From positions 1-42,078 of the IMG/VR virus record IMGVR_UViG_3300048599_000790: 42,078 nucleotides of DNA; one strand, given 5' to 3'. Source of the stretch: a virus. Lineage: Duplodnaviria; Caudoviricetes. Position numbers and translations under genes: made by a program. Positions 1,819-28,448 of the stretch are shown here, one piece after another (position 1 is the stretch's first letter; every line of letters starts with the position of its first letter). The notes beneath the pieces are model-generated. The model was not told the origin of the DNA. It did no database searches and saw only the letters and a program-made list of their open reading frames with translations.

Positions 1819-2081
1819 ACCCTTACGCTGGACCGCTCTTCTATCCGCCTGTCGGCAAGACTGCCGTAATGGGAACCGGAAGCCGTATCGAGATTTGGCC
1901 GAACGAGTCGGAAAGTGCGGACTGCTTCACCGGATTACTCCTCAAGGACGGGCGCACCGAAGCTCAGCGCGTCGTCTTTGACCTGTCCGTCATGTGGGAC
2001 CGGACGCAGATCGAGCGCATCGAGGAACCGACCCCCGATGATCTGCGGCTTGGCTGGCTTCCTCGCGAGGGCAGCGCATGA
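1815..2081 (+). CDS. Hypothetical phage protein
   Basis: ATGA-coupled to the methyltransferase stop codon (MNPYAGPLFY...). Confidence 0.6.
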   Translation: MNPYAGPLFYPPVGKTAVMGTGSRIEIWPNESESADCFTGLLLKDGRTEAQRVVFDLSVMWDRTQIERIEEPTPDDLRLGWLPREGSA

Positions 2082-2160
2082 CCCTCCTCCTGATCGCGTT
2101 CATCGGCTGCGCTGCCGCTCTTCGCGCCCGAGCTTCCCACGATAACAGGATAGAGAGACC

Positions 2161-2364
2161 ATGAGCGAGAGAGAGCAGATCGTCGCTTGGTTGCGCGCTG
2201 AGGCGAAGCTTTGTGATTGCCATGCACACAGCGCGAGCGAATGCGTCTGCGGGGCATGGGATGGCTTGTTGGACGAGCGCAGCTTCAAGCGCGTTTATGT
2301 CGAGGATGTTGCAGACGCAATCGAGCGCGGCGACTATCGAGGAACCCTAACCCATGACCGATGA
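2161..2364 (+). CDS. Hypothetical protein with Cys/His cluster
   Basis: CDCH...CVC; overlapping-gene operon layout. Confidence 0.65.
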   Translation: MSEREQIVAWLRAEAKLCDCHAHSASECVCGAWDGLLDERSFKRVYVEDVADAIERGDYRGTLTHDR

Positions 2365-2608
2365 CTTGATAAGCATCCACACTTGCCACGCCGAGTGCCC
2401 GCGCCCTCTGTGTGTCGCACAACGGACCATCGCCACTCAACAGGAAGCGATAGACGAGCTGGTCGTGGGGCTGCGGGCCATGTCGGAATACGCCGATCAA
2501 CAGCAAAGCGGCGATAGAGACGACTGGGCCGCCGGAGCCGATCATGCGTACCGCGATATGGAAGGCCAGATCGACGCCCTCCTCTCCAAGCACGGACAAC
2601 GGACATGA
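2354..2608 (+). CDS. Hypothetical protein
   Basis: Overlaps both neighbours; HTCHAECPRPLC. Confidence 0.65.
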   Translation: MTDDLISIHTCHAECPRPLCVAQRTIATQQEAIDELVVGLRAMSEYADQQQSGDRDDWAAGADHAYRDMEGQIDALLSKHGQRT

Positions 2609-2835
2609 CCGATGAAGTCTGCAAGCTGTGCGGGGAAAACGTGGAGGCTCACAGGCTTGGGCATTACTGCGGCATGTTCGTCACCGACGAAGACCCGCGC
2701 ACCAAGGCCCTCCGCACCCGTATAGCTGAGCTGGAGGGGGCGTTGAAAGCTTGCGCCGAAGCGCCCCACAGCGGCTGGACGATTGCCCAAGCGCTCGCCC
2801 GCGCCACCCTCAACGGGGAGAAGAAAGATGGATGA
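2605..2835 (+). CDS. Hypothetical protein
   Basis: ATGA-coupled; CKLC..H..C followed by a coiled coil. Confidence 0.65.
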   Translation: MTDEVCKLCGENVEAHRLGHYCGMFVTDEDPRTKALRTRIAELEGALKACAEAPHSGWTIAQALARATLNGEKKDG

Positions 2836-3058
2836 GCTGGCGACGACATTCCCCGGCGGTGCGCCGGATCGGGAAACCTTCGACCTGATGAAGCGACTCT
2901 CGGACTTGCAGGGCTGGTGCGTCCTGATGGCTAGCAAGGACAGCGGCGGCCTGCCCGCTGCGCAATTGGTGCAGGACGTCCGCGCCTACATCGTCGAGCG
3001 TCAATATCCTCGCGCCCGCGCCGCTCTACAGGCAGCAGGAGGGAAAAAACGTGCGTAA
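2828..3058 (+). CDS. Hypothetical protein
   Basis: RBS GGAG before ATG 2828 (MDELATTF...). Confidence 0.6.
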   Translation: MDELATTFPGGAPDRETFDLMKRLSDLQGWCVLMASKDSGGLPAAQLVQDVRAYIVERQYPRARAALQAAGGKKRA

Positions 3059-3155
3059 TCTCGAACGCGCCGGCCAACGCTTCGCCATAGGCCTAGCCCT
3101 CGTCCTCTTTGCTGCGACGGTGCTGGGCTTGTTGCAGATGTTCGGGGTGCTTTAA
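3051..3155 (+). CDS. 34-aa single-TM peptide
   Basis: GGAGG RBS and GTG start; MRNLERAGQRFAIGLALVLFAATVLGLLQMFGVL; too short for the ORF track. Confidence 0.5.
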   Translation: MRNLERAGQRFAIGLALVLFAATVLGLLQMFGVL

Positions 3156-3204
3156 CGCTGGCTTCAATTAGCCTGGGAGTTTTCAAGTGATTTAAGGCTG
3201 GGTT

Positions 3205-3440
3205 GAATAAGGCGGCGAGCCGACCGGGAACCCCCTGTCACAACTCGCCGCCGTGCCTTCTTTCAGGCTGGCAGCGCGGCGCCCGTGGAGACGTTGAAGG
3301 CGTTCACACCGTAGTGCCATCACCCCTCGAACTGGACCTTCGGGGTTGCGCCCCTCGCCGGATGTTGGCTGCCCTGTTGCCGAGGTCGTTATCTCCCGCC
3401 ACGGGTCGGGTCTTGCGATCTTTCGCCCGCCGCCGCGCCC
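3205..3440 (-). ncRNA. Candidate structured non-coding RNA, family unknown
   Basis: Nested long-range stems, cUACGg and GCAA loops, G-U pairs favouring the minus strand, upstream promoter and 3' hairpin. Confidence 0.6.
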
Positions 3441-3444
3441 ATTC

Positions 3445-3473
3445 TCGGTAGCACAAGAGGCGCGGAATCGCAA
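3445..3473 (-). promoter_or_regulatory. Sigma70-like promoter for the candidate ncRNA
   Basis: TTGCGA-17 nt-TACCGA with extended TG; predicted start ~3440 coincides with the 5' strand of the closing stem. Confidence 0.5.
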
Positions 3474-3474
3474 G

Positions 3475-3714
3475 TTATTCCGCGGCTTTTATCGCTGCCA
3501 GATGCCTCGCCCCGCACGCGCCATAGAGGCGGATAATCTCTGCCTCCCACACGGCGCGCGCGGGGTCTATCAGCGGGATCGGCGGCTCAGGGATTGGCGG
3601 GCAAGGCTGACGGATCGCTGCCGGTAACAGCGGCGTTGGTCGCGCGAGTTGCCGCCCGCAGGCTGTCAGCGACAGGCTCAGGAGCAGCGCACTCAGCAGG
3701 TACGGGTATTTCAC
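3475..3714 (-). CDS. o-spanin (Rz1-like lipoprotein)
   Basis: GTG start, signal peptide with lipobox LTAC, Pro-rich; overlaps the 3' end of the Rz-like gene. Confidence 0.8.
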   Translation of the reverse strand: MKYPYLLSALLLSLSLTACGRQLARPTPLLPAAIRQPCPPIPEPPIPLIDPARAVWEAEIIRLYGACGARHLAAIKAAE

Positions 3715-3961
3715 GGAAGGTCTCCCGAATAACAGTGTTCGTGGCGTAGTTCTGGCGGTCGACGGCATCGCGATTGATCTCGAACCCCGAGGCAGCCGCG
3801 TCCGCCCTCGCCCGCTGCCTGGCGGCTTCTTCCTCAAGCTTGCGTTCGATCTTCGCGGTGTCTGCGTCGGCTTTCCAGCCGCGCACGGTCCAGCCACCAG
3901 CGATGCCGATCGCAAGCAGGGCTGCGCCGCCAGCGCCATATGCCCATAGAGGGATCACCAT
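3587..3961 (-). CDS. i-spanin (Rz-like)
   Basis: N-terminal TM, GWTVRGWKAD, coiled coil, C-terminal Cys; in the lysis cassette. Confidence 0.8.
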   Translation of the reverse strand: MVIPLWAYGAGGAALLAIGIAGGWTVRGWKADADTAKIERKLEEEAARQRARADAAASGFEINRDAVDRQNYATNTVIRETFREIPVPAECAAPEPVADSLRAATRATNAAVTGSDPSALPANP

Positions 3962-4140
3962 TCTTCATCCCTCCCAAAGCCCATAGGGTTTGGCGCGCGC
4001 CAGATGCTGTTGCCGTCCGCGTCCAGAAGCCCCGTGTCGACCGCCACATGTTCGTCCACGGTCAAGCTGGTGCAGATCGGGCTTTCGGGCCAATAATCGT
4101 CATCGAACGAGCGCGGGCGCTTGGCGAAATAGCGGGGCAT
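3955..4140 (-). CDS. Hypothetical protein within the lysis cassette
   Basis: TGATG-coupled to the holin candidate; GGAG RBS. Confidence 0.65.
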   Translation of the reverse strand: MPRYFAKRPRSFDDDYWPESPICTSLTVDEHVAVDTGLLDADGNSIWRAPNPMGFGRDEEW

Positions 4141-4421
4141 CAGCCCTCCCCTCCCTGATCACTGACTTCGATACCGTCCTTGCCCACCTTGACCGTCCGC
4201 TTCACGAACAGCGCGATAAACCCGGTGATGCAGGTGAAGATGATCCCCATCGCCGCCATGCCGAGCCAGAAGGCTTTGTCGGCAATCCCGCGCACCAGAA
4301 TCAGGACGATAAATGCGTAACCCGTCATCACGATGCTGCCGCCAAGGATCGCAGCAAAGGCGAGCGCACGGCGTCCGTCAGGGGTCATGAGCGAGGGGAG
4401 CTTCACGGGTACTTGCTCCAC
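4140..4421 (-). CDS. Putative holin, two TM segments
   Basis: Two hydrophobic helices and a charged C-terminus, directly after the endolysin. Confidence 0.65.
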   Translation of the reverse strand: MEQVPVKLPSLMTPDGRRALAFAAILGGSIVMTGYAFIVLILVRGIADKAFWLGMAAMGIIFTCITGFIALFVKRTVKVGKDGIEVSDQGGEG

Positions 4422-4804
4422 GGGAGCTGCCAGTGCGGACCATCCTTGAACGATCGCCAGTCACCGCCCCACTCGATCGGGACGCCCTCGTCCTTCGCCG
4501 CCTGTTTGATGATGGGCGCGAGCTTGTGATAGAGCGGCCACGACCACGACACTTTGCCGCCAGCGTCCAACGGGGCGATGTCTACCGCGCAGCTCTTGCC
4601 AGTCTTGCCGGGAAGGTGGCGGCTGTTCATGGTCTTGGACGCACCAGTAGCAACAAGATGCTTTTGCCGCTCGACCGTGCGCAGAACCTCCAGGACAGTG
4701 AAGTCGATGTTGCTGATCGCCGCGGCACGCTTGATGACGCGCTGCAAATCCGGGTGCGCCCCGTCAAGGCGCGAGAGCGAGCGTTCGCCGAGAATGATGC
4801 TCAT
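4403..4804 (-). CDS. Endolysin, M15-family (L-Ala-D-Glu type) peptidase
   Basis: RT.ERQ, SKTMNSRHL, AVDI and WGGDW..FKDGPHWQL motifs; start taken at ATG 4804 (MSIILGERS). Confidence 0.9.
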   Translation of the reverse strand: MSIILGERSLSRLDGAHPDLQRVIKRAAAISNIDFTVLEVLRTVERQKHLVATGASKTMNSRHLPGKTGKSCAVDIAPLDAGGKVSWSWPLYHKLAPIIKQAAKDEGVPIEWGGDWRSFKDGPHWQLPWSKYP

Positions 4805-4983
4805 AGGATGTTCCACCCCTTCAACTGCCGGTGCGCGAGCCAGAAGGCTCCCGCCACCAGCGCAGAAACAATGATCAGCGGCGCGCACAGCCAGAGCCAT
4901 GCCGCGCTGTCGAAAATGCCGCCGACGAGACCCGCGAGGAAAAGCAGGCCAAGGACGATTGCGATCTTGTCACCAAGAGCCAT
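4801..4983 (-). CDS. Small two-TM membrane protein (holin or antiholin candidate)
   Basis: MALGDKIAIVLGLLFLAGLVGG...; coupled to the endolysin start. Confidence 0.55.
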   Translation of the reverse strand: MALGDKIAIVLGLLFLAGLVGGIFDSAAWLWLCAPLIIVSALVAGAFWLAHRQLKGWNIL

Positions 4984-5153
4984 CAGGTTTTCCTTTCCAT
5001 CATCCTGCCGATCTGGCGGACCAGCCGACCCCAATTTTCGGGAGGGTCGCCGCATCGAAGATGGCGAACCACGTCCTCCAGCAACTCGACGGCGGCTTGC
5101 GCGTGATCGGTGATCTCGATGCGTGCAGCGATCTGGCGTTCGGTGGCGTTCAT
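4983..5153 (-). CDS. Hypothetical protein
   Basis: ATGA-coupled to the upstream gene; MNATERQIAARIE... Confidence 0.55.
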   Translation of the reverse strand: MNATERQIAARIEITDHAQAAVELLEDVVRHLRCGDPPENWGRLVRQIGRMMERKT

Positions 5154-6313
5154 GCGGCCTCCAGCATCTCGGGTGAAACCGTGACCGTGCCGACCTCGCC
5201 AAACTCGCGGTGATAGGACACGGCAGTAATTGCTCGTTCGCTCCACCAGCCACCGCGCGCCGCATGGGCATCCCTCGCCGCCAGCGTCGGATGCTGGATC
5301 ACGCGGCAGCCGCTATGCTCCTTGTCCTCCTTGTGGTGGCGGTGGCCGGTGTGGATATAGACCTTGGGACAGGCGCCCCACATTGCGCGAAACTGCGCCG
5401 CGAACAGTGCGGGAAGCTGGTCGTTCTTCCTGAGGTGGCCGTGGTGGAAGCCGAGCATGGTCTTGCCCCACTGGATCGCGGTATAGGGCAATTCGCTGTC
5501 ATGGACCGACAGGCGCGGCTCGTTCTCATAGAGCGCGCCGAACAGCTTGCGAAGCCACAGGGACGAGGCGAGATCGTGGTTGCCCTCAGCGATATGCAGG
5601 ATGACGTTCTGGTGCTTCGTCAGGGCCAAGGCGCATAGCTGGCGGATCAGGGCGATGGAGACGTCCACGACACGCCCGAAACGGCTGTCGGCGTCCAGTA
5701 CGTGCCCATGGGTCGGCGTGACGGGAGCGTGCCCGTCATAGTGCATCCAATCGCCTTGCACGTTGACGATGCCGGTATCCGATGCCGGGGAACCAGCGAC
5801 GAGCGCAGCCATAGCCTTCTCGCCCATGTCCTTTGCGATCGTGACGTCCCAGTCGGCTCCGCCCTCTTTGTGCCAACACAAGGCGCCAACATGGTAATCG
5901 GTGAAGGTATAGAGCGTCGCCAGAGCGGGCAGAGACGTGGCCGGCGCATCAAGTGGCGGAACGGGGCGTATATCGGCCGCCAACGCATCCACAGCCTCCC
6001 TCAGAGCCTCAAATGCCCGTTGCTGATCCGGTGACTGGCGCTCCCACACGCGCTCTACGGCGCCGTCTGGACCGCGCTGGACCGTAACCTTGCCCATGAG
6101 GTAGCCCGGCGCCACCCCATGTTCGAAATGACCGGGCGCATACCCTTCTCGGGCTGCGCGCTTCTTGACGCGGCGCACCGCCTTGCTGATCGTGTCATTG
6201 CTCAGGCCAAGCGCGCGTTCAGCGGCAGCCCCGCCGCCATGCTCCGCAACAGCATCCAGCGCCCGGCGCTCGACGTCCGTTGCGAAGCGATAGAGGTTTT
6301 CATCGACAGCCAA
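5150..6313 (-). CDS. Calcineurin-like metallophosphoesterase with N-terminal HTH-like region
   Basis: Metal motifs DYH, GDWMH, GNHD, HGH and GHRHH. Confidence 0.85.
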   Translation of the reverse strand: MAVDENLYRFATDVERRALDAVAEHGGGAAAERALGLSNDTISKAVRRVKKRAAREGYAPGHFEHGVAPGYLMGKVTVQRGPDGAVERVWERQSPDQQRAFEALREAVDALAADIRPVPPLDAPATSLPALATLYTFTDYHVGALCWHKEGGADWDVTIAKDMGEKAMAALVAGSPASDTGIVNVQGDWMHYDGHAPVTPTHGHVLDADSRFGRVVDVSIALIRQLCALALTKHQNVILHIAEGNHDLASSLWLRKLFGALYENEPRLSVHDSELPYTAIQWGKTMLGFHHGHLRKNDQLPALFAAQFRAMWGACPKVYIHTGHRHHKEDKEHSGCRVIQHPTLAARDAHAARGGWWSERAITAVSYHREFGEVGTVTVSPEMLEAA

Positions 6314-6316
6314 GCA

Positions 6317-6439
6317 TCACCTCTTGAGAAGCGCCCCGAACAGGGCGGCCAGAATCACGAAGGGCACGACAGCGCCGCGCGCGTAGAAAAGAATGAGGAA
6401 CAGCCCGCACAGGCCTAAGACCCGACGAGCGCGGACCAT
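6317..6439 (-). CDS. 40-aa hydrophobic peptide
   Basis: MVRARRVLGLCGLFLILFYARGAVVPFVILAALFGALLKR fills the gap between two genes. Confidence 0.4.
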   Translation of the reverse strand: MVRARRVLGLCGLFLILFYARGAVVPFVILAALFGALLKR

Positions 6440-6684
6440 GCCTTGCTCAGCACTGCTCCGACGGTCCCGCCAGCAAGGCCGACCCCGATCAGCAGACCCG
6501 TCCCCTTGTTCTTGAGCGCAGCAAGGTCGGCCTTGTCCGCCTCCATGTCCTTGCGGAGAGCTTCGACCTCTTTACGCAGCGCCTCGTTCTCGCGACGCTG
6601 CGCCGCGCGGTCCTCTTCCATGCGCTTTGCGATGCCTTCCACCAGTGTCTCAATGCGGGCGGTGCGCTCCGCTTGGGTGGTCAC
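6415..6684 (-). CDS. Coiled-coil protein with C-terminal TM (XhlA/holin-like)
   Basis: GTGA-coupled start; heptad-rich body followed by LLIGVGLAGGTVGAVL. Confidence 0.65.
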   Translation of the reverse strand: MTTQAERTARIETLVEGIAKRMEEDRAAQRRENEALRKEVEALRKDMEADKADLAALKNKGTGLLIGVGLAGGTVGAVLSKAWSALVGS

Positions 6685-27565: not shown

Positions 27566-27723
27566 CGCGCCAACTCCTTCGGCACGTCGCGGCCCATGGC
27601 TGCGCACATGTCACGGCACTTGGCGTGAACAGCGAGCTTGTGGGGCGATAGAAAGCGGCCGCTCTCGTCGCGGGGAGCGACCCGGGGCGCGCGATGGAGG
27701 AGGCGGCGGAGGGCGGCGATCAT
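27562..27723 (-). CDS. Hypothetical protein
   Basis: ATGA-coupled; RDESGRF (NUMOD3-like) motif. Confidence 0.55.
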   Translation of the reverse strand: MIAALRRLLHRAPRVAPRDESGRFLSPHKLAVHAKCRDMCAAMGRDVPKELAR

Positions 27724-28448
27724 GCAACCACCTCCACCGGGGCGCGCCAGTGCCAATGGGCGGGCACGCCGGATATTTCGCTGATGTATTTCCCGTCCTG
27801 CTTGTCGGGGCGGACGTATTTGGCGAGGAAGTCGAACGCACCGCGACGCTCGATCCGATAGACCAAGCCTTCGACCGCCTCGCGAGCGCCGTGGCGGCCG
27901 TGAACGCCCATGAGGGTTAAGGCATCGGCAACGGCAATCGGCGCGCCGTCGTGTATCACCGCCGGGGTCGTGACGGCATAGCGGTCGCAGCGTGCGAATA
28001 GTTCGTCGTGGGGAACGCGCTTGCCGCCGGTCGTCAGATCGAAGGCAACGAACGGCTCATGGGCGAGGTCGTAAATCGTGCCGTGAGCCATTGCGAGCCA
28101 TTCGCCGTGGACCGCCTCGCCCTCGTCCAGCATCGCCGACCAACGGCCCAGACCGGCCTTGACCCACCAGTCGAAATGATGATGTTGCTCGAAAGGGCTG
28201 GTGATCGCCGGGTAGCCCGCGCGACCAAGAGCGATGATCTGGCCGCCGACCTTGGCGATGGCGACGTTTCCGCCGTCTAGCTTTTCGGTTACAATCACCC
28301 GGTCGTGCCGGTCACGAGGCTTCGTAGTGCAAATCGCCTCCTGCCCGTCATGGCAATGGTGATCGCCCGGTCCGAGCCGACTGCCGGGAAGGTGCGGGAT
28401 AGAGCCATAGGCCTTGCGCCCAAGCGGCTTGACTGGTTTGTCGCTCAT
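27720..28448 (-). CDS. RNA ligase-family nucleotidyltransferase
   Basis: Motif I TEKLDGGN, III GEW, IIIa FVAFDL, IV EGLVYR, V AKYVR. Confidence 0.85.
   Translation of the reverse strand: MSDKPVKPLGRKAYGSIPHLPGSRLGPGDHHCHDGQEAICTTKPRDRHDRVIVTEKLDGGNVAIAKVGGQIIALGRAGYPAITSPFEQHHHFDWWVKAGLGRWSAMLDEGEAVHGEWLAMAHGTIYDLAHEPFVAFDLTTGGKRVPHDELFARCDRYAVTTPAVIHDGAPIAVADALTLMGVHGRHGAREAVEGLVYRIERRGAFDFLAKYVRPDKQDGKYISEISGVPAHWHWRAPVEVVA

Follow-up and report, generated by a model that had tools for sequence, protein, structure and literature searches.

The window, that is, the whole stretch of 42,078 nucleotides analyzed here, is a complete virus record and represents a temperate P22-like phage. Family searches against the PHROGs collection identified genes for terminase, portal, major head and head closure proteins, an integrase, a RecT-like protein, an endolysin and an Rz-like spanin. 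The minus strand carries the late genes, which end at 3475, and a group of small plus-strand genes ends at 3155; the element described in the following lies inside the convergent gap between them. Upstream of it, on the minus strand, is the lysis module (3475–4804), which contains the endolysin gene (4403–4804), a gene of PHROG 23102 (3955–4140), the Rz-like spanin gene (3587–3961), and two ORFs with no family match: a holin-like ORF, assigned from its hydrophobicity, and a lipobox-bearing, o-spanin-like ORF that ends at 3475, assigned from its lipobox and hydrophobicity. The PHROG 23102 gene has relatives of 54–63% identity in four of 301 Sphingomonadaceae genomes, and a chromosomal copy of the element comes from the same family; judged by these matches, the host therefore probably belongs to the Sphingomonadaceae.

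Several other features were observed in this phage. The last gene of the plus-strand operon is a 34-aa hydrophobic ORF (3051–3155, plus strand) with a good ribosome-binding site; it matched no PHROG or Pfam family, and its region is about 95% kept in contigs of several runs. Three 11-nt direct repeats resembling TTTAAGGCTGG (3151–3161, 3191–3201 and 3261–3271) run through the convergent gap with spacings of 40 and 70 nt, and the segment 3166–3186 is duplicated in one contig of run X1. At 27723–28448, the minus strand encodes an Rnl2-type RNA ligase (PF09414, E 9e-19); the phage carrying it is temperate and has no tRNA genes.

An initial annotation had proposed that the gap encodes a multi-branched RNA of about 170 nt on the minus strand. 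Besides the window, two full homologues were found. The first, L142, resides in G251, a chromosome of the Sphingomonadaceae family, and was the one real match by BLAST in 401 genomes of that family, being 74% identical over 3436–3320 (E 1e-13); short or coding matches in 20 other genomes were not counted. Over the core of the element, the window and L142 are 71% identical. The second, L165, in the prophage record G726, was found in IMG/VR with a gapped pattern built from the window and L142, for which one of five matches was real. The window and G726 are 89% identical over 3253–3439 (189 columns) with unalignable flanks, and in G726 the element occupies the same slot, where a PHROG 23102 gene precedes it together with a spanin-like pair. 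The two phages are otherwise unrelated: only 3253–3439 and the PHROG 23102 gene could be aligned at the DNA level, and tblastn of the whole genomes gave three protein-coding ORFs in common, besides two spurious ORFs over the element. A covariance model made from the window sequence and the proposed structure alone detected L165 (E 1e-35) and L142 (E 8e-20) and had no other match in 100 sources.

Additional material came from contigs of runs X1, X2, X3, X6 and X20, among which the RNA-labelled runs are flagged as possibly DNA. A 247-nt contig of X20 (depth 3.75) contains a fourth, partial copy that matches 3331–3397 with nine differences; one of its loose ends holds the tail of the side domain, and at the other there is a P7 stem not seen in the other copies (GCACC/GGUGC) with UUAAAC behind it (see below for the helices). 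A 216-nt contig of X3 (depth 3) spans 3117–3186, 3321–3427 and 3433–3462 of the window. In this contig, 3321–3427 is exact but joined to 3186, with the 3' half of the core missing, and an inverted piece of the promoter region is present too; it is either a deletion variant or a chimera.

In G251, the core stands alone on the strand opposite its neighbors, and the locus is not a prophage. The region (L326:8162–12340) is a polysaccharide-synthesis locus, in which the copy is flanked by a membrane-protein gene on one side and a cysH-like ORF, itself split, on the other. Splits affect many nearby ORFs, possibly through assembly errors, and the indels in L142 may be errors as well.

Further searches produced few matches. 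BLASTN of INPHARED phages and PLSDB plasmids with the window element and with the L142 copy gave only matches of 22–44 nt. In IMG/VR, exact patterns of 20–21 nt had no matches, and GAAGGTCCAGTYCGRG had 119 (63 of 64 parts scanned), one of them real and on the same G726 contig. None of the 37 matches to the gapped pattern in JGI metagenomes was real, a search with the promoter pattern gave two chance matches only, and one for the spanin returned no loci. Further, overlapping GTDB samples of 401, 9, 151 and 401 genomes returned only G251 itself, and samples of 63 and 151 genomes contained no copies. Among the whole records behind the endolysin and hairpin loci, only G726 of 50 had the element, and none of 32 in a further, mostly fragmentary set; the core was also absent within 1.5 kb of the four Sphingomonadaceae PHROG 23102 loci. 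Exact patterns miss diverged members, so the rarity seen is a lower bound, and the family appears to be either rare or too diverged for exact-word scans.

Every motif listed in the initial annotation was present on the minus strand, and comparison of the three full sequences allowed the structure to be refined. The conserved RNA unit, delimited by identity to G726 and L142 and by the model matches, extends over 3253–3440 (minus strand, as are all features of the element) and consists of a core, 3440–3274, and a small hairpin, 3268–3255. The core is closed by the annotated stem P1 (3438–3431 with 3281–3274), which has two pairs changed on both sides, one changed on one side, and one mismatch in L165. 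Next comes a side domain (3407–3429) with two tetraloops (GAAA or UAAG in one, GCAA in the other), each closed by an invariant C–G pair; the hairpin TC-GCAA-GA annotated here (3418–3411) is present, but only its C–G pair is conserved. The annotated stems CCCGTGG/CCACGGG and GGAGAT/GTCTCC both exist but have a common 3' CC (3288–3287) and cannot both form at full length. The comparison resolved them into a 6-bp helix, P2 (3405–3400 with 3287–3282), and a 5-bp helix, P3 (3395–3391 with 3292–3288), with a 4-nt bulge between them. P2 showed a U–A/U–G/C–G series in a hand alignment. In L142, P3 has one two-sided and two one-sided changes on the hand alignment, in a register chosen by the analyst, and two broken pairs on the model-fitted alignment.

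P4 (3385–3380 with 3330–3325), which includes the annotated stem CCTCG/CGAGG (3385–3381 and 3329–3325), closes a conserved junction and has two two-sided changes and no breaks. The junction strands, CAAYAGRGCA (3379–3370) and GAAGGUCCAGU (3341–3331), are conserved, and between them lie P5 (3369–3357) and P6 (3354–3342), each with one two-sided change and no breaks. P6 is the annotated hairpin GGGG-CGCAA-CCCC, while P5, GCC-N7-GGC, had been overlooked, as had a lower stem, GGTG/CGCC; both covary. The latter belongs to P7 (3299–3324 together with a following UUMAAC linker), a hairpin of variable length that carries a UACG loop in the window, within the annotated GCAC-UACG-GTGT (3317–3306); its lower stem is GGUG/CGCC, AGGG/CCUU and GAUG/CAUC in the three copies. 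The small hairpin GCCU-GAAAGA-AGGC, at the annotated place (3268–3255), is common to the two phage copies only: it reads GCCG-GAAAGA-CGGC in G726, with one two-sided change, and was not seen in L142. Of additional 4-bp helices, a single one is possible in all three copies; it would pair GRCC (3412–3409; GACC in the window) with GGUC (3338–3335). With one one-sided change (A–U to G–U), this pseudoknot is a candidate only. CAAYA might be read as a T-loop or C-loop; GCAAU appears as a C-loop strand in PMC4551918, but the strand opposite CAAYA does not fit.

Covarying homologues, whose absence the initial annotation had named as one refuting outcome, were found, and the helices covary in the three full sequences. 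In the model-fitted alignment, which leans toward the proposed structure, nine of 46 pairs changed on both sides and 96.2% of 131 cells were paired, compared to 36–52% in controls with slid partners, which are not probabilities. In a structure-blind MAFFT alignment of P1, P4, P5 and P6, 59 of 60 cells were paired and five of 20 pairs had changed on both sides, whereas the slid controls gave 40–47% with no two-sided changes. All five of these changes came from the divergent copy, L142; with three full sequences, two of them 91% identical, most of the covariation rests on that one copy. The hand alignment kept all P2–P6 pairs and all but one of P1. Invariant positions made up 26 of 28 in the P4 junction strands and P6 loop, versus 23 of 36 in helices P3–P6. 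One-sided changes between G–C and G–U favored the minus strand. The window and L165 differ by five single-base indels, and there is therefore no conserved ORF on either strand; a protein-coding gene, whose frame these indels break, was rejected.

The folding energy gave a different result. According to the initial annotation, an energy no better than that of shuffled controls would count against the RNA, and this is what we found: for 3205–3445, z was −1.70 and 14 of 200 shuffles folded at least as well; for the core, z was −0.51 and 73 of 200 did so. Because the energy was no better than that of the shuffles, the proposal fails on this point. The homologues had z-scores of −1.95 and −0.83, and single-sequence folding gave P3–P5 a near-zero probability in L142 and P1–P4 a weak one in L165. 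By sequence comparison, then, the element is more than chance by its conservation, not by its energy, and we are highly confident that it is a real structured element.

The initial annotation had also listed a long 3' hairpin (3211–3252, minus strand) behind the core. However, this hairpin occurs without the core and the core without the hairpin, so the conserved unit ends at 3253 (3440–3253) and the hairpin is a separate module. It has a nearly invariant apical part, GACAGGG-loop-CCCRGUC, a varying lower stem and a weak U-tail. It recurs without the core in six viral loci (L001:4405–4454; L084 and L087:1189–1233; L088:1184–1229; L082:1189–1230; L013:6105–6146) and in a contig of X20; the cores in G726 and G251 have no such hairpin behind them. 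It is likely a 3'-end element of such RNA cassettes and may by itself serve as a signal for termination or for the 3' end, with a protein bound to it. The original description stands as regards a branched, non-coding minus-strand element with covarying homologues, but not in the 3' hairpin and the overlapping stems.

We also observed a second structured module of about 75 nt at L082:1021–1094 (plus strand) and L013:6149–6224 (minus strand), behind promoter-like sites and with the same 3' hairpin after it. Two of its 19 pairs changed on both sides, and it had no Rfam match. In L082, this module is part of an array that also contains additional hairpins, the 3' hairpin and, at 1340–1418, a tRNA-like gene.

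The promoter-like site of the initial annotation, TTGCGA (3473–3468)-N17-TACCGA (3450–3445), is present on the minus strand, with TG at −15/−14 and no T at −7; as judged from these letters, it could drive transcription of the element. Promoter-like sites occur 5–7 nt before P1 in all three full copies, in three different upstream sequences, those of like spacing being TTGCCC-17-TATAGG in L165 and TGGACA-17-TAGCCG in L142. A strict sigma-70 scan of 2000–6500 found no promoters; the scan demands a T at −7, which is absent from the sites of all three copies. According to PMC8407463, T at −7 is missing from most alphaproteobacterial sigma-70 promoters. The homology with G726 begins at 3439, which is the predicted start. 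A 14-bp inverted repeat surrounds the −35 region (3455–3468 and 3477–3490), right after the last lysis stop codon, and is a possible late terminator or operator; it was not seen in G726 or L001.

The stretch 3433–3474 is kept with no or one difference in contigs of X1, X2 and X6. Locus L001, whose endolysin is 91% identical, has a like site at the same place and the same 3' hairpin, with about 65 different nucleotides between them. The contigs of X2 and X3 are unlike right after the promoter, and one from X6 has 287 letters in place of 3213–3429, which might hold a copy below 80% identity. The slot after the lysis genes appears to be swappable, in that related phages keep the promoter and carry other inserts. 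No gene travels with the element between the window, G726 and G251, and in each of these loci a different convergent gene comes next (the 34-aa ORF, an HNH gene and a cysH-like ORF).

As to known classes, ARAGORN found no tRNA or tmRNA genes in the window, and there were no matches to Rfam 15 at the gathering threshold in the window, which agrees with the earlier failure to recognize a known RNA. The families covered include riboswitches, ribozymes, 6S, RNase P, SRP, ROOL, GOLLD, manA and wcaG. By E-value, the best local matches over the element were noise (14–15 bits, E 3–4), and L142 and L165 had none at E ≤ 1. An Antizyme_FSE match at 3507–3580 was below gathering and inside the spanin gene. 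The hammerhead core, CUGANGA plus GAAA in either order, is absent in all three copies. A pairing GACCU/AGGUC, which we took to resemble the core of a group I intron, does not hold in L142 and uses bases of the covarying P4; nor is there an interrupted gene. We further rejected a riboswitch or cis-regulatory leader (a convergent neighbor in all three loci, and no conserved ORF on the same strand that has a ribosome-binding site), a type I antitoxin (the hydrophobic 34-aa ORF is found in one of three loci only), a tie to the phage RNA ligase (absent from G726) and an RNA antisense to its own genome (with one mismatch allowed, nothing else in either phage is complementary to the conserved single strands).

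A literature search for the element found no description. Its motifs were not found in the four supplementary files of PMC10690425 that were searched; an earlier listing as an unnamed candidate is possible. The main text of PMC11109978 contains neither "phage" nor "Sphingo". With no Rfam family and no description found, this is apparently an undescribed structured phage RNA motif with a thin comparative base. In kind, it would be a stand-alone structured phage ncRNA, as ROOL and GOLLD are; the covarying multi-helix structure is seen in three full sequences only.

The element is likely to be a transcribed RNA gene. Our tentative overall reading is that it is a conserved multi-branched ncRNA, likely transcribed from its own promoter, that would act in trans as a decoy for a host factor. 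The decoy or aptamer mechanism as such was reached by elimination and is possible rather than probable. The RNA would start at about 3439 and be released as free RNA; it would then fold compactly through its tetraloops, the P4 junction and perhaps the GRCC/GGUC pseudoknot, and the invariant junction would bind and decoy a host protein or small molecule, to the benefit of the phage in its conflict with the host, as with other accessory ("moron") genes. The convergent, differing next gene in all three loci argues against a riboswitch, leader or antiterminator, and, in contrast to a seed region, the conserved single strands form part of a closed multi-way junction. The element has been exchanged between unrelated phages and a chromosome; optional, exchanged elements are the pattern of accessory genes in phage–host conflict. 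The decoy in trans is suggested because what is left is a free RNA, optional and exchanged, with its shape and junction bases under selection. Against a role in conflict counts the chromosomal copy, which lies in a polysaccharide-synthesis locus rather than a prophage and is left unexplained by such a role. A bolder and distinctly doubtful extension is that Sphingomonadaceae phages keep an "RNA moron" slot behind their lysis genes, with a fixed promoter and 3' hairpin and swapped folded RNAs, whose occupant is a protein-free anti-defense aptamer, sponging an immune nucleotide signal or blocking a defense protein as the RNA counterpart of phage sponge proteins.

Among the alternatives, a catalytic RNA that trims the transcript of an RNA cassette by self-cleavage or processing, with the invariant P4 junction as its active site, survives best, although we consider it unlikely. 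Size and near-invariant junctions of this kind fit ribozymes, the pseudoknot candidate is compatible with all three copies, and the module arrays of the sibling slots, which include a tRNA-like gene, might require processing. However, there is neither a Rfam ribozyme match nor a hammerhead core, the group-I-like pairing is broken in L142 and clashes with P4, and an RNA that begins at the predicted start and stands alone in G251 leaves little to cleave.

Rather improbable is a cis-acting role on transcription where the late and early transcripts meet, as a put-like antiterminator, an insulator or a source of antisense RNA. A promoter-like site does immediately precede the element, which sits at the late operon's convergent end, and the 14-bp inverted repeat spans the −35 region; but no same-strand gene follows the element in any of the three loci, the convergent neighbors differ, related phages manage without it, and its conserved single strands find no complement in the rest of either phage genome when one mismatch is allowed.

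Similarly improbable, and a shade less credible, is a selfish or DNA-level mobile element that pairs in single-stranded DNA, or else a base-pairing antisense RNA or type I antitoxin. The patchy spread over unrelated phages and a chromosome would suit such an element, and in the window the 34-aa hydrophobic ORF converges on it; the other two copies have no such peptide beside them, and there are no terminal inverted repeats, no target duplication and no common mobilizing gene, while the G–U changes and tetraloops are RNA-like.

We give low credence to a small relative in kind of ROOL and GOLLD, an RNA-only assembly that oligomerizes by tetraloops and kissing loops. GNRA-type loops are conserved in the element, and ROOL and GOLLD are prophage-borne, ornate, non-essential and often near tRNA islands, according to 10.1101/2024.12.08.627333; yet the element is a quarter of their size, matches neither in Rfam, and has no conserved 6-nt palindrome in its loops.

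Chance, in the form of a GC-rich spacer with similarity from recent exchange and stems picked by eye, would fit the folding z-scores of −0.5 to −1.95 and the few sequences, but is very improbable given that two-sided changes preserve every tested helix of a 71% identical copy in a structure-blind alignment, that the fourth copy brings a different P7, and that the predicted start site marks the limit of the homology.

Time and again, intricate RNA structures with invariant junctions have been recognized as ribozymes, aptamers or RNA-only assemblies; from phages of Alphaproteobacteria, few such structures are known. The element is small enough for direct synthesis and assay. The locus also hints at a general search route, namely the promoter-to-hairpin slot after the spanins, whose occupants differ between phages and include, as a minimum, one other covarying module without annotation. 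Should the decoy interpretation be correct, it would represent an RNA-only phage route against host defense, beyond tRNAs and CRISPR-repeat mimics.

The element shares features with several known systems. Lambdoid late-region sRNAs and morons and the put RNAs of HK022 have their own promoters, occupy accessory positions near the lysis genes and are swapped between phages. The element resembles them in its promoter-like site, its accessory place near the lysis genes and its exchange, but is far more branched, has invariant junctions instead of a seed region, follows rather than precedes the lysis genes, and has no operon to antiterminate. The Rfam motifs manA and wcaG are phage-borne structured RNAs located 5' of genes, with wcaG tied to polysaccharide genes. 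The G251 copy, in its polysaccharide-synthesis locus, recalls the latter association; unlike manA and wcaG, the element has no same-strand gene downstream, and it matches neither at the gathering or E-value level. ROOL and GOLLD are RNAs of prophages for which neither a function nor a protein partner is known (10.1101/2024.12.08.627333). Like the element, they are stand-alone, multi-branched and patchily distributed in phages and prophages; the element differs in its size (about 170–190 nt versus 600–800), in adjoining lysis genes with no tRNA island in this phage, and in having no Rfam match. The candidate structured RNAs of viruses and phages reported by Fremin et al. (2023; PMC10690425), from the largest screen for phage RNAs, are orphan phage RNAs supported by covariation, and the element belongs with them in resting on the same kind of data.
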